Source of the DNA: Acidobacteriota bacterium
GTDB taxonomy: Bacteria; Acidobacteriota; UBA6911; RPQK01; JAJDTT01
Length of the DNA stretch: 64,000 bases
Reading direction: 5' to 3'
Assembly (NCBI GenBank): GCA_965222655.1
Contig: CBDCUP010000019.1
Coordinates: forward strand, 280,825 to 344,824
The notes beneath the pieces are model-generated. The model did not search any database, was not told where the DNA came from, and worked only from the letters and a program-made list of their open reading frames with translations. Shown in pieces: positions 8,997 to 61,307 of this stretch (position 1 is the first letter of the stretch; each line of letters begins with the position of its first letter). The translations under genes and the position numbers were made by a program.

Positions 8997-9079
8997 CCGT
9001 GGCGGTGGCCTCCGTGCCGCCGTTTTTCGAGCCAAAGGCTCGAAGGAAAGAACACGGCGGCACGGAGGCCACCGCCACG
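8997..9079. repeat. nested-palindrome REP-like element, family 2
   Basis: 26-bp perfect inverted arms ccgtggcggtggcctccgtgccgccg / cggcggcacggaggccaccgccacg around an inner tcgagcc-aaa-ggctcga hairpin. Confidence 0.75.
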
Positions 9080-9181
9080 TCCCTCGACTGAAGTTTCTTT
9101 CCTATACGATCCGGCGGTCTGCAGCCGGGGGCGGCGCTAAGCTGAAACATGAATAAGCCTGTGCCAGTGAAACGTGCCTTC

Positions 9182-9257
9182 GGTCTCCAGGCCGAAGTCT
9201 TCCACTTTCGAGCCTCTTGGCTCGAAACACGGCCGCCTGGAGACCGCCGCCACGTCC
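9182..9257. repeat. nested-palindrome REP-like element, family 2; a related copy lies at 46658-46729
   Basis: ggtctccaggccgaag ... inner tcgagcc...ggctcga hairpin ... cggccgcctggagaccgccgccacg. Confidence 0.7.
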
Positions 9258-11106: not shown

Positions 11107-12141
11107 ATGAGAGTACTGGTACGACGAACGACGGGAAGGCACCTGACGCTGATTCTGATTCTAGCGGGAATCATGGCTTCCTCAGCGTCGGGAGCCGACG
11201 CAACCTCGTCCAGATTGGACCCAGGGCCGAGATTCAAGATCGAATCGGAAGTGGTTCGCGTTCCTGTAGTGGTTGTCGACGAGGAGGGCCGCCTCTATAC
11301 GGACCTCAAGAATGAGCAATTCAAGATCCTGGAGGATGGAGTCGAACAACCCGTGACAATCTTCACCGGCGGGGAGGCGCCGATGAACATCCTCCTGCTG
11401 TTGGAATACAGCGGTCGCATCCTCCCGCTGCTGGGTGAAGTTTTGTACCCGGCGGACATGTTCATCTCCCAGATCCTGAACGAAGAGGACTACGCCGCCC
11501 TGATCTCTTTCGACATCAAACCCAGGGTGGTCTCGGACTTTACTTCTCACCGCGGCAAGCTTTTCAACTCCCTCAGGGGACTCGCCAATGATCCCCCCTT
11601 TTTCCGCGATAGTTCCCTGTACGACGCGCTCGATTTCGCACTTGCGGGGAACATGGACTATGCGGGATTGTCCAGAGTCCAGGGGCGAACTGCCGTGCTC
11701 CTGATCTCCACGGGCCGCGATAGCCTGAGCAAGATCAACTTCGACGAGGCACGGAGGGTGGTGGCCAACGCCGGAGTGCCCGTCTATTCCATAGGCATAG
11801 GAGAGGGGGCTGCCCTGCGAGCGGATCCCTACACGAGTGACATCGGCCGCCTCGAGCACTACCAATCCAGAAACACGCTGCGCACCTTTTCTGCGAGCTC
11901 AGGCGGCAGATCCTATACGGTCCGGTTCCAGGCCGATATAGAGGAGGTCCTGAAATCCATCGCGGCCATGATCCGCTTCCAGTACACCCTCGGTTACACA
12001 CCTCTCAACGATCGACAAGAGGGCAAGAAGAGAAAGATCAAGGTGTTGGTGGACATAGACGGCGATGGCGAACCAGACAACAAACGTCTGCAACTCCAAC
12101 ACCGTCAGTTCTACGTAGAACCTAAGTACACTGGAACGTAA
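11107..12141 (+). CDS. VWA domain protein of the Acidobacteria-type (TIGR03436-like)
   Basis: Signal peptide, then FKIESEVVRVPVVVVDEEGRLYTDLKNEQFKILEDGVEQPV signature, then a VWA core. Confidence 0.7.
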   Translation: MRVLVRRTTGRHLTLILILAGIMASSASGADATSSRLDPGPRFKIESEVVRVPVVVVDEEGRLYTDLKNEQFKILEDGVEQPVTIFTGGEAPMNILLLLEYSGRILPLLGEVLYPADMFISQILNEEDYAALISFDIKPRVVSDFTSHRGKLFNSLRGLANDPPFFRDSSLYDALDFALAGNMDYAGLSRVQGRTAVLLISTGRDSLSKINFDEARRVVANAGVPVYSIGIGEGAALRADPYTSDIGRLEHYQSRNTLRTFSASSGGRSYTVRFQADIEEVLKSIAAMIRFQYTLGYTPLNDRQEGKKRKIKVLVDIDGDGEPDNKRLQLQHRQFYVEPKYTGT

Positions 12142-37156: not shown

Positions 37157-37208
37157 GGGTGAATACCTCGGTTGAGAGTTTTCAATCCTCTTGACAGAGC
37201 CGTCCTAA

Positions 37209-37383
37209 CCCGCATTTCTCATCGCTGGTCTACTACGTCGCCGCAATCATCCGCCCTGGCTGCGTTACGCTCTCTCGGCCTCCTCGACGTACTGCACGAG
37301 TACGACTGCGGGGGCCTCGGTCGCAAGCCTTGCCAGGACGGCCCTTGCGGCGCCTCGCTACGACAAGCGATGAGAAATCCGGG
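37209..37383. repeat. 175-bp MITE-like element with imperfect terminal inverted repeats, copy 1 (copy 2 at 59157-59331)
   Basis: About 97% identical to 59157-59331; ends cccgcatttctcatcgctggtctac / gctacgacaagcgatgagaaatccggg are mutually reverse-complementary; internal hairpins cgtactgcacgagtacg and gcaagccttgc. Confidence 0.8.
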
Positions 37384-37531
37384 TTAACGCAGTGCAACCT
37401 GGGCTGCATCTAAACGATGCACTCCCACACCATTGATCTCCCCTTGTACCCGCTTTGTTTAGTAAGTCTGTCTACACTCGCCGCCCCAGCTGCGGGGTGT
37501 AGGACTTAGATGTCTAAGTAGTTGTTCTAAA

Positions 37532-38323: not shown

Positions 38324-38495
38324 TAGGCTATAGTGACTACCAGATTCGCAGGCTGAGTTCTCATTGGATCGGCATCGCGTTTTTCAAGAAATGAAAACCT
38401 TCAACCTGCATCTTGTAACCTGCTAACCTGTAACCTATGACATTCATCCCCGAATCTTTCCCCGTGAGAACCTCGAAGGCCGAGCAGGAAACAAC

Positions 38496-45310: not shown

Positions 45311-45374
45311 GGAAGGTCTCCGGATGGTTCCACCCCCAGGAAGCCCTGTCCCATTCCAGAAAGAAGCTTCGGTT

Positions 45375-45431
45375 GTAGGACGGGCACTCTTGCCCGTCAA
45401 GAACGGCGACGGGCAAGAGTGCCCGTCCTAC
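45375..45431. repeat. REP-like palindromic element, family 1, copy 2
   Basis: gtaggacgggcactcttgcccgtc-aagaacggc-gacgggcaagagtgcccgtcctac, perfect 24-bp arms. Confidence 0.85.
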
Positions 45432-45519
45432 AAGCGGTCAGAGCTCGATTCGATGAACTCTTGCACGATCTCCTAGCTGATGACGTTTCACCCTAGTCCC
45501 AACCCAATCAGGGCATCCT

Positions 45520-46626: not shown

Positions 46627-46657
46627 CATGACCGGGCTGCTCACTCCTACGTGGCTT

Positions 46658-46729
46658 CGGTCTCCAGGCCGAAGTGTTCTTGTCGAGCCTGGCGGCTCGA
46701 CCGACGGCGGCCTGGAGACCGCCACCACG
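46658..46729. repeat. nested-palindrome REP-like element, family 2
   Basis: cggtctccaggccgaag...tcgagcc-tggcg-gctcga...ggcggcctggagaccgccaccacg. Confidence 0.7.
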
Positions 46730-51512: not shown

Positions 51513-51624
51513 AACGAGCTCTCGCCAGAGAGCGATGGCCTTCCTCCAGGGTCAATCAACCCAGACTCTAAAGGCCAAGCTCGACCGAAGCAACCGTTCG
51601 CTCCTTTTGCCCTCGCCCCCGCTC

Positions 51625-51695
51625 CTGCCCTTGCCTCTGCCTTTGCCTTTGCCTTTGCCTTTGCCTTTGCCTTTGCCTCTGATTTTGATTTTTCA
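51625..51695. repeat. hexanucleotide microsatellite (CCTTTG/CCTCTG), about 8 units
   Basis: cccttgcctctgcctttgcctttgcctttgcctttgcctttgcctttgcctctgattttgatttt in the divergent promoter region between 49854-51512 and 51820-55059. Confidence 0.85.
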
Positions 51696-51819
51696 TCCAA
51701 GGTTCCACGGGCAAAGGCAAAGGCAAGTGTCAGGATGAGGGACGCACGCAGGACCCAGTCTTTTTGACCTTGCTTTAGCCCCGGGTTACAATCGGTCGCA
51801 AAGGAGCTAGCGACCCTGA

Positions 51820-54800
51820 TTGCTTTCAAAACCCGGATACCGAAATCCCAGAGAGATCATGGCTGTGCGATCTGAATCTCGCTCTCACTTACCTTCTATT
51901 CTCGGCGTTGTTCTGTGCATGATGCTCTGCGGAGCGTCTGCCGTCGCCGCCTCCAAGCTTGATGAATCGACTGTCGAGTTCAATCGGGATATCAGGCCCA
52001 TCCTCTCGGACAAATGCTATGCCTGTCATGGACCCGATGAGAACAAGCGGCTGACGAAGCTGCGATTTGACACCGAGGAGGGCGCGCTTGCGGATCTAGG
52101 AGGCCGCTTCGCGATCGTACGCGGGAGTCCCGGGCAGAGCGGGATTGTCAGCAGAATCACCACCGACATCGAAGCACAGAAAATGCCACCGGTGTACTCC
52201 GGAAAGGAGCTCACCGAACATCAAGTTGATCTGCTCCGGCGCTGGGTCTCTCAGGGTGCCAAGTGGCAGAGGCACTGGGCGTTCATACCGCCCGGACGGC
52301 CAGAGCTGCCCCACCTGGAGGACAGCAGGTGGGCTCGGATCGGACTGGACCATTTCATTCTCCAGCGGCTCGAAAAAGAAGGCCTGGACCCTTCACCCGA
52401 AGCGCACCTTGCCACCCAGATCCGCCGGCTGACACTCGATCTGACTGGCCTCCCGCCGACCCCCGCCGAAGTGGATGCCTTTCTCACTGACAGCTCTCCA
52501 GATGCTTACGAGAAGGTAGTCGATCGTCTGCTCCAATCCCCGCGCTACGCCGAGAAGATGGCGAGCCGCTGGCTGGATGCGGCCCGATATGCCGATACCA
52601 ACGGCTATCAGACGGATGCCGAGCGAAGCATGTGGAGGTGGCGCGATTGGGTCATTGATGCCTTCGACAAGAACATGCCCTTCGATCAGTTCACGATTGA
52701 GCAGATCGCCGGAGACATGCTGCCAAACGCTACTCTCGAGCAGAAGATCGCCAGCGGTTTCAATCGCAACCATCGCGGCAATGGGGAAGGCGGAATCGTT
52801 CCCGAAGAGTACTCCGTCGAATATGTAGTCGATCGGGTAGAGACGACTTCAACCGTGTGGTTGGGGCTGACGATGGGATGCGCCCGCTGCCACGATCACA
52901 AGTACGATCCCATCAAACAGAAGGATTTCTACCGGGTCTTTGCCTACTTCAACAACGTTCCCGAGCGGGGACGCGCCTTCAAGTTCGGCAATTCCGCGCC
53001 CTTCATCCCGGCGCCCACGCCGAGCCAGCTGCAGCAGCTGGGAAAGCTGGAGGCGAAACTGGCCGGGGCCGAGGAGCAGTTCGAAGCACTAGGTTCCGAG
53101 ATCGAGGAGTCGAAGCGGATCTGGGAAGCCTCTCTGGCCCAGTCCACGATCCTGGATTGGTCCTTCGACCGGGACCTGCTTCTTCGCTACCCGCTCGACG
53201 GCTCGCTGGCCGGTCAACCCAGCGGTTTCAAGGATAAGAAACCAGTCCAGGTCCGGCTGCTCGACGGCATGCCCCATTTCGTATCCGGGCGGCTGGGGGC
53301 TGCTGCCAGCTTCGACGGAAAGCGGTTTCTGGAAGCTGGAGATGTTGCGGAACTGGGCTTTTTCGACCGATTCTCTCTTTCCGCCTGGGTTTACCCGACA
53401 GCCCCGGACGGCCCCATCCTGGGACGGAATTTCGATACCCCGGAGGTTGGCGATCATGGGTTCAAGGGCTACGGCCTGTATCTGAGGGAGGGCAAGGTAC
53501 AACTGAATCTGGTGACTCGTTGGTTGGACGACTCCCTTCGAATCGAGACGGCGGAGCCGCTCGAATTGAACCGCTGGCACCACGTCGCTGCGACCTATGA
53601 TGGCACCCGTGTCGCAGAAGGTACCAGGATCTACGTCAACGGTCAGGCCAGCGCCCTCAACGTGAGGCTGAACCTGCTCAACCAGGATTTCCGTCTCCCC
53701 AACTCCTTCCGGATCGGCGCTGCGGGTGCTCGTCGCTTCTCCGGTCTAATCGATGAGGTTCGGGTCTACACAGAAGTCTTGTCCCCTCAGGAAGTCGCCG
53801 TGATCTCGCTGGCCGACAGCGTGAATGAGATCGCCGCCCTGCCTCCCGAAGGCCGCAGTCAGTCCCAGACTGACAAGCTTCGGTGGTGCTTCCTCGACCA
53901 GTACGCCGCCCCAAACATCCACAAGGCCTGGCAGCAGTTGCAGGATCTGCGCCGGCAGAAGCAGGAGATGGTCCGCGGCTTCCCCACCGTTATGGTGATG
54001 CATGAGGGAAAGACCCGCGATACCTTTGTGCTGGTCCGCGGCGCCTACGATAGACCCGGGGAAAAGGTGCTTCCCGGGGTGCCCTCTTTCCTTCCCCAAC
54101 TGCAGGAAGGTTGGGCCAACAACCGGATCGGATTGGCCCGCTGGCTGGTGGCTCCCGAGAATCCACTCACCGCACGGGTGACGGTGAACCGTTTCTGGCA
54201 GACGTATTTCGGCGTCGGGCTGGTCAAGACCGCCGAGGATTTTGGTTCGCAGGGTGAATGGCCGCTGCATCTGGAACTTCTGGACTGGCTCGCCACCGAG
54301 TTTGTTTCCAGCGGCTGGGACGTCAAGGCACTTCAGAAAACGATCGTGATGAGCGCGACCTACCGACAGTCCTCGAAGGTGCGGCCCGAGCTGCTGAAAC
54401 GAGATCCGGAGAATCGGTTGCTGGCTCGGGGTCCGCGTTTCCGGTTGCCGGCAGAAGTCGTGCGTGACCAGGCGCTGGCGGTTTCGGGTTTGCTCGTAGA
54501 GCAGGTTGGCGGACCCTCCGTCAAGCCTTATCAGCCGGCTGGACTCTGGTCGGATTTAGCTGGAGGCGAGGATTACCAGAGAGGCGAAGGCAGCGATCTC
54601 TACCGCCGAAGCCTCTACACCTTCTGGAAACGGACCTCGGCCCCCCCCTCCATGACCACTTTTGACTCCGGCCAGCGTGAGACTTGCTCGGTTAGGCAGG
54701 AACGGACCAACACCCCTCTTCAGGCCCTCAACCTGATGAACGACGTAACTTATGTGGAAGCATCCCGGGTGCTGGCTCAGCGGATGATGGAGGAGGGCGG

Positions 54801-55059
54801 TAAGACGCCAGCGGAGCGGATTGCCTTTGCCTACAAGGTGGTCACGGCCCGGACACCCCAGTCCAGCGAGGGCGGGATTCTACTCGAGGGTTTCCAGCAC
54901 TACTTGCGAGATTATCGGGACGATCGCGGGGCCGCCCTGAAGCTGGTTTCCCAGGGCGAGCATCCTCGCAATCTGGCTCTGGACGTCGCCGAGCTGGCCT
55001 CCTATGCCACGGTTGCCAGCCTGATCCTCAATCTTGACCGGGCCATTACCAAGGAGTGA
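51820..55059 (+). CDS. PSCyt1/DUF1549/DUF1553 domain protein (planctomycete-type cytochrome c domain; LamG-like middle domain)
   Basis: Signal peptide; CYACHG heme motif; characteristic DUF1549 and DUF1553 stretches (WLDAARYADTNGY..., RLLARGPRFRLPAEVVRDQALAVSGLL...). Confidence 0.85.
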   Translation: MLSKPGYRNPREIMAVRSESRSHLPSILGVVLCMMLCGASAVAASKLDESTVEFNRDIRPILSDKCYACHGPDENKRLTKLRFDTEEGALADLGGRFAIVRGSPGQSGIVSRITTDIEAQKMPPVYSGKELTEHQVDLLRRWVSQGAKWQRHWAFIPPGRPELPHLEDSRWARIGLDHFILQRLEKEGLDPSPEAHLATQIRRLTLDLTGLPPTPAEVDAFLTDSSPDAYEKVVDRLLQSPRYAEKMASRWLDAARYADTNGYQTDAERSMWRWRDWVIDAFDKNMPFDQFTIEQIAGDMLPNATLEQKIASGFNRNHRGNGEGGIVPEEYSVEYVVDRVETTSTVWLGLTMGCARCHDHKYDPIKQKDFYRVFAYFNNVPERGRAFKFGNSAPFIPAPTPSQLQQLGKLEAKLAGAEEQFEALGSEIEESKRIWEASLAQSTILDWSFDRDLLLRYPLDGSLAGQPSGFKDKKPVQVRLLDGMPHFVSGRLGAAASFDGKRFLEAGDVAELGFFDRFSLSAWVYPTAPDGPILGRNFDTPEVGDHGFKGYGLYLREGKVQLNLVTRWLDDSLRIETAEPLELNRWHHVAATYDGTRVAEGTRIYVNGQASALNVRLNLLNQDFRLPNSFRIGAAGARRFSGLIDEVRVYTEVLSPQEVAVISLADSVNEIAALPPEGRSQSQTDKLRWCFLDQYAAPNIHKAWQQLQDLRRQKQEMVRGFPTVMVMHEGKTRDTFVLVRGAYDRPGEKVLPGVPSFLPQLQEGWANNRIGLARWLVAPENPLTARVTVNRFWQTYFGVGLVKTAEDFGSQGEWPLHLELLDWLATEFVSSGWDVKALQKTIVMSATYRQSSKVRPELLKRDPENRLLARGPRFRLPAEVVRDQALAVSGLLVEQVGGPSVKPYQPAGLWSDLAGGEDYQRGEGSDLYRRSLYTFWKRTSAPPSMTTFDSGQRETCSVRQERTNTPLQALNLMNDVTYVEASRVLAQRMMEEGGKTPAERIAFAYKVVTARTPQSSEGGILLEGFQHYLRDYRDDRGAALKLVSQGEHPRNLALDVAELASYATVASLILNLDRAITKE

Positions 55060-55062
55060 TTC

Positions 55063-56535
55063 ATGGATCCCAGGCTTGATCGCCGATTGTCGATGACTCG
55101 CCGCCATTTCTTCGGATTGGGGAGCACTGGCATTGGTACCGCGGCACTGGCTACTCTTCTGGATCGCAGTCTGCTGGGTAGGACCGGACTGAAGGGTCCG
55201 GGTGATGGACCCGCTCAAGGCGGGTTGTCGGGGCTCCCGCATTTCGCTCCGAAAGCCAAGCGGATCATCTATCTGTTTCAGTCGGGTGCTCCTTCCCAGA
55301 TGGACTTGTTCGACTACAAACCGAAACTGGAGGCTCTGGCCGGTACGGAGCTGCCCGACTCGATTCGCAAGGGGCAGCGTTTGACCGGGATGACGGCCAC
55401 CCAATCCAGTTTTCCGGTGGCTCCATCGGTATTCGAGTTCGCCCAGCACGGCGCGTCCGGTGCCTGGGTCAGCGAGTTGATGCCGCATACGGCCAAGATT
55501 GCCGATGACCTCTCGTTCATCAAATCGATGCACACGGAGGCCATCAACCATGATCCTGCGATCACGTTTTTCCAGACCGGGGCCCAACTGGCAGGACGAC
55601 CCAGTATCGGCTCCTGGCTTTCCTACGGCCTAGGCAGCGAGAACCGGGATCTTCCGAGCTTCGTGGTTATGGTCTCCAGTGGCGAGGACGGTGCTGGACA
55701 ACCACTCTACGATCGACTCTGGGGAAGCGGGTTTCTCCCCACCCGGTATCAGGGGGTCAAGTTCCGCTCGATCGGGGACCCGGTGCTCTATCTATCGAAT
55801 CCGCCAGGACTGAGCAGACCCAACCGGCGCCGATTCCTGGACGATTTGAACCGGCTCAACCAGCTGCAGCTGGAGGAGTTTGGGGATCCGGAGATCGCGA
55901 CCCGGATCGAGCAGTATGAGATGGCCTATCGAATGCAGACGTCCGTCCCCGATCTAACAGACCTTTCAGGCGAACCGGAGCACGTATTCAAGCTCTACGG
56001 CCCCGAGGCAAAGAAGCCCGGGACATATGCGTACAACTGTTTGCTGGCCCGTCGTCTGACGGAACGCGGGGTCCGCTTTATTCAGCTTTTCCACCGCGGT
56101 TGGGACCAGCACACCACGCTGCCCGAGGAAATCAAGGTCCAGTGCAAAGACACCGATCAAGCTTCGGCGGCCCTGGTTCAGGATCTGAAGGAGCGGGGTC
56201 TGTTGGAGGACACGCTGGTAGTCTGGGGAGGCGAGTTTGGCAGGACGGTCTATTCACAAGGCAAGCTGACCGCGACCGATTATGGACGCGATCACCATCC
56301 CCGCTGCTTTTCCATCTGGCTGGCAGGCGGAGGCATCAAACCCGGTGTCATCTACGGTGAGACTGACGACTACGGCTACAACATCACGCGCGATCCAGTG
56401 CATGTCCACGATCTGCACGCGACCCTGCTCCACTGCCTGGGCATCGATCACACCAAGCTGACCTTCAAATACCAGGGGCGAGATTTCCGCCTGACCGACA
56501 TCCACGGAAAACTGGTAAAGAAGCTCCTAGCGTAG
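55063..56535 (+). CDS. DUF1501 (sulfatase-like) protein with Tat signal
   Basis: [20 protein letters not shown] twin-arginine signal; the DUF1501 pair partner of the DUF1553 protein, 3 bp downstream. Confidence 0.85.
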
Positions 56536-56549
56536 CGTCCCTTTCTTTG

Positions 56550-56712
56550 CCCGTGCCCGTGCCCGACTTTATGTTCTTGCTGAGTTGACCACGAGACCCC
56601 GGTTTCGCCACCATTTGCCATGAACGTTCCACGCCAGAGAAAGACGAAGGGATTGTGGAAACACGCCCCGCGCACGGGCACGGGTAAGGGCAAAGGCAAG
56701 GGAGGAAAGGGG
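56550..56712. repeat. inverted CCCGTG/GGCAAA simple-repeat pair between convergent genes
   Basis: ctttgcccgtgcccgtgcccg (56545-56566) is reverse-complementary to cgcacgggcacgggtaagggcaaaggcaagg (56671-56702). Confidence 0.7.
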
Positions 56713-56754
56713 TCGAAGGACGTGCGACGTGCAGACGTTCCGACGTGCGACGAC

Positions 56755-58158
56755 CTATCGTCCCAACGCCGCCGCCATCTCTTCAACAGTAGTGAACTTG
56801 ACTCTGGGCCTACCCGACTGGAGCCCCTTTTCCCGCTCGATCTCGTCTATCCTCTGCCAATCCGCGTAGGAGAAGTAGTCGGGACGGTTACGTCGAATCA
56901 GTGTCTCGGTATCGCTGCTCCCCTGGCGCGAGGGCTTTAACGTCAACCCCGCCTTCAGGTCTTCAAGCATGCAGGACACGGTTTCCAGGGCGTCCGGTTT
57001 GTTGGTGCCGATGACTCCGTTGGGCCCGCGCTTGATCCAGCCTGCCGTGTATTCACCTACGATAGGCTTCCGAGTCTCCGGCTCCACAACTCGACCCTTC
57101 TCGTTGAGGATTACACCCCATTTCGGATTGAAGGGAATGTCTGAGAGCGGCAGGCCCTTGTAGCCAATGGATCTGAACACCAGGCCAACCTCGAGTTCCT
57201 CAAACCTGTCAGTAGCTCTGGGGCGGAGCGTTCCCATGTCGGTGGAATAGAGTTCGTTCTGGACCAGTCGCATAGCCTTCACCTGACCTGAGCTGCCCAG
57301 GATCTCAACCGGAGAAACCAGGAAGCGAAGGTGGATGGTGCGCGACTGGCCAGCCCGCTCGCGGGAGGCAATCTTCTCCAGAATCTCAATTCTCTTCAAT
57401 GCGACCCGATCGTTCTCTCGCTCTAACGCCTGCTGGCTCAAGGAGTCGGGGGTTGCCTCCTCCGGAGGAATAGTGACGTGGACATTATCCAACTCCCCCA
57501 ATTCCTTGATCTCAGGATTGGTAAAGGCCGCCTGTGCCGGCCCTCGTCGTCCCAGCATGTAGACTTCTCGCACCCGGCTTTGGCGGAGCTGCTCGAGGGC
57601 ATAATCCGCAATGTCCGTCTGCGCTAGATCCTCGGGAGTGCGACTCAGAATCCGGATCACGTCAATAGCCACGTTGCCCAGACCGACTACTGCAGCCCGC
57701 TCTTGGGACAAGTCGAACTCATAGTCGCGAAAGTCGGGGTGGCCGTTGTACCAGGCCACGAAATCGGTAGCTGAATAGCTACCCTTCAGGTTTTCGCCGG
57801 GTATGCCGAGGTTGCGGTCTGATGGGGCGCCCGTAGTGTAGATGATCTGGTGATAGTGGTCTCGCAGCTGGGCCCGGGTAATATCACGTCCCAACCCAAC
57901 CTGGCCAAAGAATTTGAAGCCGGGATTGGCTGCAGTCCGGTCGAAAGTCCTGGTGACCGCCTTGATCCGCTGATGATCGGGAGCGACGCCATTTCGAACC
58001 AGACCGAAAGGCGTCGGAAGACGATCGAACATGTCGATCTCGACGATGATACCGTCCTGCCGGAACAGATGCTCAGCGGCATAGAAACCCGCTGGTCCCG
58101 CACCAACAATCGCGACCCGCAGCGGGCAGTCGCTGGTACCTGGCTTGGCCATCTTCAA
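56755..58158 (-). CDS. FprA-type FAD-dependent ferredoxin-NADP+ reductase-like oxidoreductase
   Basis: VAIVGAGPAGFYAA FAD-binding GxGxxG, second Rossmann motif VVGLGNVAIDV; about 460 aa adrenodoxin-reductase-like layout. Confidence 0.65.
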   Translation of the reverse strand: MKMAKPGTSDCPLRVAIVGAGPAGFYAAEHLFRQDGIIVEIDMFDRLPTPFGLVRNGVAPDHQRIKAVTRTFDRTAANPGFKFFGQVGLGRDITRAQLRDHYHQIIYTTGAPSDRNLGIPGENLKGSYSATDFVAWYNGHPDFRDYEFDLSQERAAVVGLGNVAIDVIRILSRTPEDLAQTDIADYALEQLRQSRVREVYMLGRRGPAQAAFTNPEIKELGELDNVHVTIPPEEATPDSLSQQALERENDRVALKRIEILEKIASRERAGQSRTIHLRFLVSPVEILGSSGQVKAMRLVQNELYSTDMGTLRPRATDRFEELEVGLVFRSIGYKGLPLSDIPFNPKWGVILNEKGRVVEPETRKPIVGEYTAGWIKRGPNGVIGTNKPDALETVSCMLEDLKAGLTLKPSRQGSSDTETLIRRNRPDYFSYADWQRIDEIEREKGLQSGRPRVKFTTVEEMAAALGR

Positions 58159-58201
58159 TGACTTCCTCTACTGGAGAGATGTGGGGGGCAGGGTGCAGGC
58201 T

Positions 58202-58630
58202 TCAAACCGTGGAAAGCCGGGTCTGAAGAGATTCGACCTGGCCTTCATACTGGTCCCGCTGTGTCCGGACGACATCCATGATCGAGATGATGCCAACGAG
58301 CTCGCCGTTGTCGACGACGGGAAGATGGCGAAATCTCTTTTCAGTCATGGTATTAGCCACAAGCCTCGCGTCATCGGTGGGGCTGGTTATGATCACTTCC
58401 TGAGTCATGAGACTGTCTACCCGCCGGTCGAACACCGCCTCGTCCCTGGCCGCTCCGCGAACGATATCTCGCTCGGAAAGGATGCCCATGGGATGATTGG
58501 TCTCGTCTACTACAACCAGGGCGCCGATATTATGTCGGGCTAGTAAAGCGAGTGCCTCCCTGATCGAATCGTCGGGGCGGACGACGACGACGCTCGAGCA
58601 TTTGGTAGCAAGGATTCTCTCGACGTTCAT
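58202..58630 (-). CDS. CBS-domain pair protein
   Basis: Two CBS repeats (HNIGALVVVDE..., RHLPVVDNGELVGIISIMDV). Confidence 0.75.
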   Translation of the reverse strand: MNVERILATKCSSVVVVRPDDSIREALALLARHNIGALVVVDETNHPMGILSERDIVRGAARDEAVFDRRVDSLMTQEVIITSPTDDARLVANTMTEKRFRHLPVVDNGELVGIISIMDVVRTQRDQYEGQVESLQTRLSTV

Positions 58631-58716
58631 CTTCGTGGAAGCTCCTTAATTCAATACCACCTCTGACCCCTCATCATACTGTTCGAGAGTCTTGGGTTCA
58701 ACGGCAGCGGCCGGTT

Positions 58717-59139
58717 CTACTCGTCTTCCGGATCGACGCGAGAGCGGACTTGTTTCATCTTGCTGCGGTGATGCTTGGCGCGGAGTCTTCGCTCGGCTGC
58801 GGCCCGGGTGGCGACCGTTGGGATCCGAGGAGTTGCTTGAGCAAGAGCCTCCGAGAGCAGGCGTACAAACCGCTCCTGAGCCTCCTGCCGGTTCAAGTGC
58901 TGACTGCGGTGACGCTGACAGACGACCCGAAGTATCCCGGCTCGACTGACCCGGGTGCTCAGACGGCTTCCTACTCGCCGCTTTTCCTCCTCGCTAAGGC
59001 TATCTGTCTTCTCCAGGTTGAACAAGAGCGTGACGCGAGTGCTGACCTTGTTGACGTGTTGGCCACCAGGCCCGCTGCTCCTGGCCGCGGTAAAGCGGAT
59101 CTCATCGTCCGGTATTGAAAGGCTACGGTTGATCTGGAC
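58717..59139 (-). CDS. arfB: peptidyl-tRNA hydrolase ArfB (alternative ribosome-rescue factor B)
   Basis: GGQHVNKVSTRV GGQ motif and basic C-terminal tail. Confidence 0.75.
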   Translation of the reverse strand, partial: VQINRSLSIPDDEIRFTAARSSGPGGQHVNKVSTRVTLLFNLEKTDSLSEEEKRRVGSRLSTRVSRAGILRVVCQRHRSQHLNRQEAQERFVRLLSEALAQATPRIPTVATRAAAERRLRAKHHRSKMKQVRSRVDPEDE

Positions 59140-59156
59140 CATTGGAAGTAGACTAT

Positions 59157-59331
59157 CCCGCATTTCTCATCGCTGGTCTACTGCGTCGCCGCAACCATCC
59201 GTCCTGGCTGCGTTACGCTCTCTCGGCCTCCTCGACGTACTGCACGAGTACGACTGCGGGGGCCTCGGTCGCAAGCCTTGCCAGGACGGCCCTTGCGGCG
59301 CCTCGCTACGACAAGCGATGAGAAATCCGGG
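59157..59331. repeat. 175-bp MITE-like element, copy 2
   Basis: See 37209-37383. Confidence 0.8.
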
Positions 59332-60090
59332 CTATAACCTTCCGAGAACGACCATCGAACCCGTAGGTTGAGGACTTCCTCCCTTGGGCTCTATGGTCAG
59401 CGCGAACGCTTGGAGTGCCACGACTCCCGCAGGAAGATTCAGCTGAAGCTCGGTGACCTGACCCAGGCTTTGGAACACCGTCGAGGGGTGAGGCGCCTTA
59501 TCCTTCTCGATCACCCACAGCTGAAAATCTTGATCTTCACTCAGCGCGGGTAGGTTGTGTAAGAAGACAGTAGCTCGTTCCTCCTCGGTCTGGACAAACA
59601 CACTCCCGGCGACTGATTCGTAGTTGGTGAGTCCCACGAGATTGATGAACTTGAGGTCCGGGCGCGCCAGCTCGTTCACCTTGATGTTCAAGTCCTGATT
59701 AGCGATACGCAGCCGCTCGACCTCGGCTTGCAAAGAGCTGATCGTAAGGTCCTTTTGGTAGCTGACCTGGTAGAAGCGCAGCAGGACCGCTGCTCCCAGG
59801 ATAAGCAGGATGGAGGCGGCAATCGCTGCGGCGCGCCACCAGGATCCCTTGTGCTCAACGGAGCCATGAGTCTTGGAGATTTCCTCGAGCAAAGCCTCCT
59901 TTACGGAGGGCGCGGGAGTGCTTTGGGGTAAGGCATGCGGGAGGCTGTGGAGGACCTCCTCCAGCTCCACCAACTTTTCCCTGCACTCCGAACACTCGAC
60001 CAGATGGTCCTCAAACTCTCGAGATTGAGGTTCTCCTAGAGTGCCCAGGACATACTCGATGTAGTGTTCTCCGAATCTTTGCTCAGCCAT
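59332..60090 (-). CDS. anti-sigma factor (zinc-finger N-terminus, single TM, periplasmic C-domain)
   Basis: H..EC.EC..... N-terminal motif (DHLVECSECREKL), TM segment; overlaps the sigma-factor gene by 8 bp. Confidence 0.65.
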   Translation of the reverse strand: MAEQRFGEHYIEYVLGTLGEPQSREFEDHLVECSECREKLVELEEVLHSLPHALPQSTPAPSVKEALLEEISKTHGSVEHKGSWWRAAAIAASILLILGAAVLLRFYQVSYQKDLTISSLQAEVERLRIANQDLNIKVNELARPDLKFINLVGLTNYESVAGSVFVQTEEERATVFLHNLPALSEDQDFQLWVIEKDKAPHPSTVFQSLGQVTELQLNLPAGVVALQAFALTIEPKGGSPQPTGSMVVLGRL

Positions 60091-60721
60091 TGCGAAAAAC
60101 CGGGGCTAGTCTCCTCCGCAGCTTCTCGAGTCCCAGTTGGATCCGAGTCTTCACGGTTCCAAAGGGTGCCTCCAAGGTCTCGGCGATCTGCCGATGGGAT
60201 AGTCCATCATAGTAGGCAAGGTAGATCGCTTGCTTTTGCTCTTCGGGAATCTCCGACAGCGCCTGCAGGACGATCTCCCTCCGTTGACCTTGAATCGCCT
60301 TCGAGAGGGGATTCTTCTGTTCCGAACTATCGACGGCCTCCGGGATCTCCTCAGCCAGGGAGACCTCTCTGGATCGGCTTTCTTTTCTCCACTCGTCGAT
60401 CGCAAGGTTTCTAGCGATCGCGAAAAGCCAGGTGGATACGCCCGCCAGTTTGGGGTCATACCGCCCTGCCTTCTCCCAGACCGAGATGAAGGTGTGTTGA
60501 ACCACAACCTCCGCCGATTTCTGATTCCGGAGGATTCTCAGCGCCAGGCTGTAGATGGCTCCTGAATAGACATCGTAGAGATCGGAAAGCGCTTGTGCGT
60601 CCCTGAAAGTGATCTTGCGCAGAAGGAGCCAGTCTTGAGGCATGAGTATTGTCTTCGACCCGAGTGGATGCATTGTATTGAACCACCACTTCCAGAGCAA
60701 ATCCGTGTCGCCCAATCCCAC
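60083..60721 (-). CDS. ECF (sigma-70 family) RNA polymerase sigma factor
   Basis: Region 2 (FISVWEKAGRYDPKLAGVSTWLFAIARNLAIDEWR) and region 4 HTH (LSHRQIAETLEAPFGTVKTRIQLGLEKLRR). Confidence 0.8.
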   Translation of the reverse strand: MGLGDTDLLWKWWFNTMHPLGSKTILMPQDWLLLRKITFRDAQALSDLYDVYSGAIYSLALRILRNQKSAEVVVQHTFISVWEKAGRYDPKLAGVSTWLFAIARNLAIDEWRKESRSREVSLAEEIPEAVDSSEQKNPLSKAIQGQRREIVLQALSEIPEEQKQAIYLAYYDGLSHRQIAETLEAPFGTVKTRIQLGLEKLRRRLAPVFRNG

Positions 60722-60785
60722 CCTTGCCTTTGCCTTTGCCCTTGTCCTTGTCCTTGCCTCTGCCTTAGCCTTTGCCTTCGCTCGT
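60718..60785. repeat. hexanucleotide microsatellite (CCTTTG/CCTTGT variants) immediately upstream of the ECF sigma-factor start
   Basis: cccttgcctttgcctttgcccttgtccttgtccttgcctctgccttagcctttgccttcgc. Confidence 0.85.
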
Positions 60786-60869
60786 TCAATCCAGTCAGCC
60801 TGCAGAACCCTTCGAGATCCTGAGTGTCTGCGTTGACTCCGCCCCTTATTCGATGTTAAGTCTCAAACC

Positions 60870-61307
60870 ATGTCGGAGGAACAGGGTAGCCAGTGGGTTC
60901 AGACGGATTTCCGGGTCCGCTACGCCGAGACAGACCAAATGGGGATCGCCTACCATTCCAACTATCTGATCTGGTTTGAGGTAGCAAGGGTCGAGTTCTT
61001 CCGACGATTTGGCTTTACCTACAATCGATTGGAAAAGGAGACGGGCACCTTCCTTCCGGTGGTGGAAGTGCACTGCAGGTACCTCCTACCACTGCGCTAC
61101 GATGACGAATTCACGGTCAAGACGCGCTTGGATGAATTTGGCAGGAGGCTGCTCGGTTTTGCTTACGAGTTGGTCAATAAGGATGGGGAAAGCGTCTATG
61201 CTCGGGCCCAGACAAAACACGTAGCAACCGACAAGAGCGGCAGGCCCAAAACTCTCCCAAAGGGGTTCCTCGACTTTCTCAGTCAAGCGAATCCCAGCCC
61301 GGTTTAG
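60870..61307 (+). CDS. 4HBT/YbgC-type acyl-CoA thioesterase
   Basis: FRVRYAETDQMGIAYHSNYLIWFEVARVEF hotdog-fold signature. Confidence 0.75.
   Translation: MSEEQGSQWVQTDFRVRYAETDQMGIAYHSNYLIWFEVARVEFFRRFGFTYNRLEKETGTFLPVVEVHCRYLLPLRYDDEFTVKTRLDEFGRRLLGFAYELVNKDGESVYARAQTKHVATDKSGRPKTLPKGFLDFLSQANPSPV

Follow-up and report, generated by a model that had tools for sequence, protein, structure and literature searches.

In a 64,000-nt window from an Acidobacteriota bacterium (contig CBDCUP010000019.1), GGCAAA/CCTTTG hexamer arrays recur at three intergenic sites: 51626–51678 (site 1), 56548–56565 with a partner at 56675–56712 (site 2), and 60724–60778 (site 3). We lean towards reading these arrays as arms belonging to a family of non-coding palindromic elements specific to one clade, comparable to MITEs (miniature inverted-repeat transposable elements) or to REPINs, the inverted doublets of repetitive extragenic palindromic (REP) sequences, and with slippage-prone arms made of GGCAAR hexamers. 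Its carriers are uncultured Acidobacteriota that form one genus-level clade. The arms of the family are complementary and able to pair, and its copies have been gained, lost or replaced at orthologous intergenic sites.

Hexamer Arrays at Three Intergenic Sites

The initial annotation of this DNA had noticed the hexamer at three places, and had held its recurrence to be unlikely by chance and its location to be intergenic rather than coding. These claims were borne out. Tandem Repeats Finder reported arrays at all three places, with coordinates broadly as first given, except that the site 1 array, said to span 51625–51695, ends near 51680:

51626–51678: site 1 left array, TGCCTT × 8.8, 93% matches
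51710–51726: site 1 right array, GGCAAA × 2.8, 100% matches
56548–56565: site 2 left array, TGCCCG × 3
60724–60778: site 3 array, TTGCCT × 9.2, 83% matches

When up to one mismatch was allowed, GGCAAAGGCAAA was matched 13 times in the window, versus a mean of 0.29 in 100 dinucleotide-preserving shuffles, none of which reached 13. Twelve of the 13 matches fell in the three intergenic sites, the sole exception being at 54820, in a window that is about 82% coding according to a crude gene call. No further array was detected in the remaining 54 kb with a 12-mer scan and a generalised GGN-purine hexamer detector. The unit consensus, taken from 20 arms of the clade, was GGCAAR (GGCAAA 40, GGCAAG 26, and GGCACG 14), GGCACG and GGCGAG being variants of this unit, and in several arms a pure GGCAAA run passes into degenerate units at one end of the array. 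Site 1 contains six perfect CCTTTG units, which is long enough for slippage, and site 3 is more degenerate, as its match score indicates.

Arm-Core-Arm Architecture

Complete copies are about 150–270 bp long, with inverted arms of 17–85 nt, cores of about 30–105 nt that are mostly site-specific, and no consistent open reading frame (ORF). In the window, they are arranged as follows:

51594–51680: site 1 left arm, a degenerate outer part (51594–51625) followed by near-perfect (CCTTTG)n
51681–51709: site 1 core, about 29 nt with a T-rich left end (CTGATTTTGATTTTTCATCC...), the loop of a predicted hairpin
51710–51727: site 1 right arm, GGCAAA GGCAAA GGCAAG, an inverted counterpart to the left array
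56536–56565: site 2 left arm, CGTCCCTTTCTTTGCCCGTGCCCGTGCCCG, directly after the DUF1501 stop codon (TAG, 56533–56535)
56566–56670: site 2 core, about 105 nt
56671–56723: site 2 right arm, (CG)CACGGGCACGGGTAAGGGCAAAGGCAAGGGAGGAAAGGGG...GGACG, an inverted counterpart to the left arm
60700–60785: site 3, an outer motif (CCGTGTCGCCCAATCCCACC) and about 10 degenerate units, one arm left in the window

The array of site 1 had been recognised from the outset, but its inverted partner, (GGCAAA)3 at 51710–51727, had been missed, so that site 1 has in fact the same architecture as site 2. Read on the minus strand, its left arm consists of six GGCAAA units together with GGCAGA, GGCAAG, and GGCAGG. The site 1 arms are 100% complementary over 17 nt, and the site 2 arms 90% complementary over 21 nt. 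At site 3, no inverted partner was found in the window; the orthologous site in L209, L210, L215, L216, L226, and L227 (L numbers denote the compared loci) carries the complete arm-core-arm form.

The surrounding genes were confirmed with Pfam and encode an Nramp-like protein, a PSCyt1/DUF1549/DUF1553 protein, a DUF1501 protein, an FAD/NAD(P) oxidoreductase, a CBS protein, an RF-1 domain protein, an RskA-type anti-sigma factor, an ECF sigma factor, and a thioesterase. Site 2 sits between the ends of the convergent DUF1501 and oxidoreductase genes. A separate array of the heptamer GACGTGC (4.6 copies, 56719–56752) adjoins its right arm, just beyond the oxidoreductase gene's 3′ end, and is partly kept as GACGTTCAGACGTTCAGACGTGCGACGA in L210.

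The Paired Form Occurs in One Clade

Syntenic loci were compared from about six species, whose FNR-like gene shares 90–94% nucleotide identity, and from an outgroup (76%). They include L001, a near-identical locus on a 4.73-Mb metagenomic contig, and L025 (GenBank CBDCMS010000003.1), an exact substring of L215. Exact-protein look-ups returned no record for the sigma factor of the window or for P0003, and those of the Nramp and PSCyt proteins returned the same contig only.

The site 2 pair is conserved in L210, L215, and L226, and the paired form is also present in L012, L013, L112, and the outgroup L211, where the array pair lies downstream of the oxidoreductase gene. In every pair, the order is a C/T array, the core, and a G/A array, and it is never reversed. 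Such uniformity is predicted by descent from a common element, but not by independent local origin.

A scan of genomes from 185,579 species for (GGCAAA)4 yielded at least 120 loci, with 150 arrays among the matches listed. Of these matches, just four loci had an inverted partner no more than 400 nt away, and all four (L012, L013, L025, and L112) are in metagenome-assembled genomes (MAGs) of this Acidobacteriota clade. In 890 kb of distant homologous loci from a metagenome scan with the FNR-like protein (relatives with 52–66% identity throughout), which served as a negative control, there were no arrays at all.

The tract (GGCAAA)4 itself fails as a marker of the family, being found in many phyla, mostly unpaired and inside long open frames. 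Among the matches listed, the remaining (GGCAAA)n arrays sit for the most part in long stop-free stretches, and these partnerless arrays probably encode low-complexity Gly/Lys, Ala/Lys, or Gln/Arg segments. They range from 4 to about 48 units among the matches listed, and are frequent in Acidobacteriaceae MAGs.

Gain, Loss, and Replacement at Orthologous Sites

The site 1 element was observed in the lineage of the window only, its relatives having about 20 nt between the divergent −35 boxes. L209 and L218 lack the site 2 element and have other palindromes in its place, among them a GTAG-tagged REP-like hairpin. An unrelated palindromic family, GCCTGAAGCGC...GGGGTTGGG (GCCTGAAGCGCRAGCGAGGGGTTGGGG ... 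CCCAACCCCTCGCTYGCGCTTCAGGC), with a core of about 100 nt, takes the sites in relatives: it is found in the site 1 region of L209, L210, L215, and L216 (further upstream) and at site 2 of L209, and has no copy in the window. At site 3, L226 and L227 carry an element of about 270 nt with long arms ending in ACGTGTTTAGCGTCC and a 63-nt core. The L226 copy shares 82% identity over 217 nt, core included, with the element of L112, although the flanks of the two are non-homologous.

These observations suggest a non-autonomous family that would be mobilised in trans by a putative transposase or other enzyme. Its copies may settle in permissive gaps, namely between back-to-back promoters, after stop codons, or between convergent genes. 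Any influence on gene expression, for instance through a 3′ RNA hairpin formed at site 2, would then be incidental and mostly neutral, with no programmed switch based on unit number.

Several points weigh against this reading. L226/L112 is the sole case of a core shared between non-orthologous loci, and the argument for mobility rests on this pair and on presence or absence at orthologous sites; the other cores at different sites are without detectable homology (z < 3.5). No clear target-site duplication was seen at the junctions of L112, L226, or site 1, and the roughly 200 kb of clade DNA that were sampled, which do not amount to a genome-wide copy count, contained no transposase with matching ends. 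The three copies of the window are clustered within 9 kb, its other 54 kb being free of them, so that local recombinational spread would fit as well. Finally, some of the unit-count differences reported below come from low-coverage long-read assemblies (L216, 4×).

A candidate end motif, TTTAGCGTCCC, present at the left ends of site 2 and at the ends of the L226 and L112 elements, was discarded as it is short and has many chance matches at two mismatches; it was not found beside transposase genes in the same 200 kb.

The GTAG-tagged hairpin mentioned above (TGTAGGACGGGCACTCTTGCCCGTC / GACGGGCAAGAGTGCCCGTCCTACA) also occurs in the window at 45370–45436, as well as in L218 (1–639) and L209 (reverse complement of 11399–11641). 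At the site 3 orthologue of L210 (6563–7693), a Phd/YefM antitoxin gene and a second gene are inserted between the sigma factor and thioesterase genes. The 140-aa product of the second gene, without a recorded Pfam match, is taken to be the toxin. This module is bounded by two direct copies, about 70 nt each, of a hexamer array plus CTGAnTT..TTTGGnTTCAGCGA, and its L209 version is decayed.

Predicted Hairpins

The predicted RNA fold of site 1 has a free energy of −50.4 kcal/mol (z = −3.5). At site 2, the minimum free energy (MFE) is −73.6 kcal/mol (z = −1.9), and the arms are paired in both the MFE and the centroid structures, in agreement with the early suggestion that the inverted pair at 56545–56712 would form a long stem. 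Site 3 of the window showed no excess folding (z = +1.2). The stems enclose 30–105 nt and no T run follows them. A terminator scan reported no site at any of the three elements, and the search of Rfam 15 returned only miRNA-hairpin models, with sub-threshold scores of 22–31 bits against thresholds of 70–106.

The strength of the predicted stems at sites 1 and 2 invites the explanation that the paired arrays are kept by selection as RNA hairpins that end or stabilise transcripts, in the manner of REP sequences, their mobility being irrelevant. Site 2 and the L211 copy each directly follow a stop codon in a gap between convergent genes, and the site 2 arms have been kept in four species, with invariant blocks, while the core diverged and flipped. 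However, the stems lack a U-tract and the terminator scan was empty; sites 1 and 3 lie between divergent promoter-like blocks and are possibly untranscribed; and one arm of site 3 has been lost in the window. The absence of the site 2 element from two relatives and a z of only −1.9 for its fold also argue against such selection, which we consider rather unlikely when compared with a family of palindromic elements.

Unit Number Varies between Lineages

Over about 18.9 kb, just 5 SNPs and 2 indels distinguish the window from L001, and both indels fall within arrays: L001 is one unit (plus 1 T) shorter at site 1, and one CCTTGT unit differs at site 3. Within the species of the window, site 3 has 10 units in the window and 11 in all five other assemblies, which are short- and long-read and come from several samples. 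In the sister species B, for which L217 is the reference copy, it has 6 units (24 bp fewer) in nine of nine assemblies. L215 and L216, the latter from a long-read assembly at 4× coverage, are separated by 3 SNPs over 19.5 kb and by 18 bp, or three units, at site 3. The arrays of L226 and L227 are identical. One long-read contig of the window's species, L123, starts within the site 3 array, perhaps because the repeat interrupted the assembly.

The arrays thus differ by 6, 18, and 24 bp between strains and sister species, but are uniform in the nine and five assemblies of two species. As for frequent switching, the identity of site 3 across these assemblies speaks against it at the level of consensus sequences, in which variation within a population is invisible. 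Like microsatellites, the arrays therefore lengthen or shorten by 6-bp steps over the time in which strains and species diverge, and they show no sign of rapid switching. Replication slippage probably accounts for these steps in arm length.

Arrays Lie Outside Conserved Promoter-like Blocks

Four promoter-like blocks flank sites 1 and 3:

51565–51593, minus strand: TTGCTT-17-TAGAGT, upstream of the Nramp-like gene, a putative promoter read by eye
51764–51792, plus strand: TTGACC-17-TACAAT, upstream of the PSCyt/DUF1553 gene, from a consensus scan and conserved in L215 and L226
60671–60699, minus strand: TTGCTC-17-TACAAT, promoter-like, between the site 3 array and the ECF sigma factor ATG at 60643
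60833–60861, plus strand: TTGACT-17-TTAAGT, upstream of the thioesterase ATG at 60870, a putative promoter read by eye

At both sites, the element occupies the gap between back-to-back promoter-like blocks. Site 1 begins directly beside the −35 box on the Nramp-like side, where the block GCAACC...ACTCTAA is common to the window and its relatives, and the TTGACC-17-TACAAT block sits 37 nt past its right arm. At site 3, TTTGCTCT and GTTCAATACAAT, in the promoter-like block of the sigma factor gene, are invariant in five lineages, and the thioesterase block was also found in L210, L215, L217, and L226. Moreover, the site 3 array had been described as abutting the start codon of the sigma factor, which would require translation to start at the GTG at 60721, a codon that is not conserved and reads GAG in L217. 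Conservation places the start at the ATG at 60643 instead, and 75 nt separate it from the array.

The initial annotation had proposed that a change in unit number alters promoter spacing. Since the arrays of sites 1 and 3 lie upstream of, and between, the conserved blocks, such a change cannot alter the distance between the −35 and −10 boxes, and phase variation through promoter spacing is not supported. More broadly, the arrays might be contingency loci, in which slipped-strand changes of the hexamer would modify promoter geometry and reversibly switch the ECF sigma factor, the Nramp-like gene, or the PSCyt operon. This is improbable. The six perfect units of site 1, the differences at sites 1 and 3 between near-identical genomes, including L215 and L216, and the location of every array in intergenic DNA near promoter-like blocks are all compatible with it. 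Nevertheless, the arrays lie outside ORFs and −35/−10 spacers, leaving spacer length untouched, and the site 3 array is both degenerate and constant in independent assemblies of two species. Site 2, between convergent gene ends, has no promoter to tune, and paired arms are needless for a spacing switch.

Inversion of the Site 2 Core

Two orientations of the site 2 core were seen, one shared by the window and L210, the other by L215, L216, L226, and L227, where the sequence is reverse-complemented. Local-alignment z scores were as follows:

Window and L210 cores: same orientation 26.8, reverse complement −0.1
Window and L215 cores: same orientation 2.1, reverse complement 14.0
L210 and L215 cores: same orientation −0.7, reverse complement 21.1

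A four-species alignment of site 2 was colinear only when the core was flipped, with 99 invariant columns versus 71 for the unflipped alignment, and the flanking genes and the outer parts of the arms were colinear in all four species. The left arm keeps the same side in L210, L215, and L226: the arm on the DUF1501 side starts with TAGCGTCCCT, and the arm on the oxidoreductase side holds GGGCAAAGGCAAGGG, which is invariant in the four species. Because the outer arms keep their sides, the inversion points to exchange within the arms and not to re-insertion of the whole element, and recombination between the inverted arms appears to have flipped the core. The three within-species pairs (window/L001, L215/L216, and L226/L227) each share one orientation. 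At site 3, the cores of L210 and L215 gave a local z of 6.3, yet their global identity was 57–58% in either orientation. The comparison of L112 with L226 was rejected as a further case of inversion, because of its non-orthologous loci and almost symmetric arms; it was retained as evidence of dispersal.

The arrays could also be viewed, by analogy with the subterminal hexamers of Ac/Ds transposons, as platforms offering many binding sites to a dedicated enzyme, a putative recombinase or transposase responsible both for the movement of the elements and for the flipping of their cores. The genomes of the clade would then contain a genome-wide set of switches, located between promoters and at gene ends, tunable by slippage and reversible by inversion. 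The toxin–antitoxin module of L210 would then be a cassette captured by the same machinery. We regard this idea as doubtful.

It is even less probable that the elements are programmed invertons, their inverted arrays being the sites at which a distant site-specific invertase flips the cores and changes transcription or termination. The site 2 core does occur in both orientations between species, with breakpoints within the arms, and the cores are asymmetric, with a T-rich motif beside one arm that lies at opposite ends in different lineages at site 3. However, orientation is shared within each of the three species pairs, the site 2 core (56566–56670) proved free of promoter-like sites in a sigma-70 scan, there is no recombinase gene within 10 kb, the inversion at site 3 is statistically insecure, and loops between inverted repeats can flip passively.

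Lastly, the arrays are very unlikely to code for Gly-Lys, Ala-Lys, or Gln-Arg peptides as small ORFs or N-terminal extensions. In favour of coding, units vary at the third position in a GGN-like manner, frames that open with an ATG exist at site 1 (Gln-Arg, minus strand) and in L025 (Gly-Lys), the Ala-Lys frame of site 3 is in phase with the sigma ORF, and the arrays of other phyla among the matches listed are mostly in long open frames. Against it, the open frame varies between copies, a TAA interrupts the Gly-Lys frame of site 3, no upstream ATG, GTG, or TTG exists in the sigma frame, where the GTG at 60721 is unconserved, and core inversion and arm loss would break any ORF running from arm to core. 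The coding reading was rejected on account of these inconsistent frames and of the TAA.

Other Repeats and Genes of the Region

The window contains at least four other inverted-repeat (palindromic) families, and the genome is therefore prone to such elements. An element of about 180 nt has two copies, at 37206–37386 and 59154–59334, with 25-nt inverted ends (TAACCCGCATTTCTCATCGCTGGTC / GACAAGCGATGAGAAATCCGGGTTA) that are 131 nt apart; the second copy lies between the RF-1 domain and anti-sigma factor genes, within the span of the hexamer sites. A large inverted repeat at 2523–2743 has 62-nt arms, 97% complementary and 97 nt apart. The palindromic family CGTGGC(G/T)..GGTCTCCAGGCCG / CGGCCTGGAGACC..CCACG recurs in intergenic DNA of the window (8998–9255 and 46650–46729) and of its relatives (L218, 1–200; L226, 680–760). 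AACCTGT/AACCTGC heptamer repeats were seen at 38403–38436, and a run that resembles them, GGAAACCTGTAACCTGCAAGCTTCAACCTGTAACC, at 560–600 of L226, in its site 1 region.

L227 differs from L226 by 8 SNPs in 20 kb and by two insertions (at L226 positions 4796 and 10896), one of 587 bp that splits the DUF1501 gene and one of 2,346 bp that carries a DDE_Tnp_1 transposase. Pairs of PSCyt1/DUF1549/DUF1553 and DUF1501 genes are commonly regarded as planctomycete markers; here, such a pair (51859–56535) occurs in a lineage labelled Acidobacteriota, and the relatives have a second pair about 7 kb downstream.

Implications

Microsatellite-like tracts next to bacterial promoters are commonly interpreted as phase-variation switches. 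The comparative data give another origin for the tracts described here, as arms of a clade-specific palindromic element. A single structure would thus combine two mutational modes, slippage of the arms by 6 bp and arm-mediated flipping of the core, both of which remodel the DNA between promoters and at gene ends in abundant, uncultured soil Acidobacteriota. This offers a concrete route by which palindromic repeats and microsatellites may generate one another. The variable arrays could be useful as strain markers in metagenomes and, if an enzyme does act on them, the elements would represent a new kind of bacterial mobile or invertible element.

Comparison with Known Systems

The elements resemble bacterial MITEs, such as the Correia/NEMIS elements of Neisseria, in being small, non-coding, intergenic, and bounded by hairpin-forming inverted ends, in their presence or absence at orthologous sites, and in having related copies at unrelated loci (here one pair, L112/L226). 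They differ in that their arms are tandem hexamer arrays of variable length instead of a fixed terminal inverted repeat (TIR), their cores are mostly site-specific, and neither a target-site duplication nor a parent insertion sequence was found in the sampled clade DNA.

REP and TIR families associated with tyrosine transposases (RAYT, the REP-associated, and TIRYT, the TIR-associated enzymes) have been described, among them a separate group of Y1 tyrosine transposases that are flanked by TIRs and occur in Acidobacteria (Di Nocera et al. 2013, PMC3733652). A REP is a 20–40-nt imperfect palindrome tagged with GTAG or CGTC at one end (PMC3733652). Our elements are similar to REP/REPIN and TIR families in forming inverted doublets and long hairpins, in lying between gene ends, and in coexisting with several other families per genome. 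In contrast to REP/REPIN sequences, each arm is a direct hexamer array that is not self-complementary, and there is no GTAG tag; site 2 does begin with CGTCC, but it has no REP stem-loop. The three elements also differ from intrinsic terminators, which are short G+C-rich hairpins followed by a U-tract.

In simple sequence repeat (SSR) contingency loci, the tract lies within an ORF or between the −35 and −10 boxes, and its unit number sets expression. The arrays share with those of host-adapted pathogens short tandem units that vary between close strains and lie near promoters. Unlike them, they fall outside −35/−10 spacers and ORFs, are partly degenerate, are paired in inverted orientation, and are uniform across many assemblies, and their host is a free-living soil bacterium.

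Intergenic tandem repeats are known from free-living bacteria as well, for example the short tandemly repeated repetitive (STRR) heptamers of cyanobacteria, and Mrazek et al. in 2007 reportedly described long SSRs of 5–11-nt units. TAACTGA heptamer repeats occur in intergenic DNA of Beggiatoaceae and Cyanobacteria, a Beggiatoa genome containing 169 direct repeat sets versus one indirect set (PMC4679880). As in our clade, such repeats are lineage-restricted arrays of 6–7-nt units at many intergenic sites, with no known function. Repeats of the TAACTGA type are, however, nearly all direct and often placed just before start codons, whereas those described here form inverted pairs around a core.

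Small hairpin-loop inversions between inverted repeats are familiar from the non-coding DNA of chloroplasts. Like these and like bacterial invertons, the site 2 core is a short segment found in both orientations among related lineages, with the repeats fixed; unlike them, it has no invertase within 10 kb, no promoter in the segment, no polymorphism within species, and microsatellite arms. In hAT transposons of the Ac/Ds type, subterminal AAACGG hexamers are bound by the transposase. The likeness lies in the many hexamer copies in both subterminal regions, in inverted orientation, but these transposons are eukaryotic and their motifs are dispersed and not strictly tandem, and the idea that a protein binds the arrays reported here is pure conjecture.

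A search of the literature by title and abstract found no description of a palindromic element with microsatellite arms and a flipped core. Each ingredient is known separately from the systems above, and their combination in one element family appears to be new.

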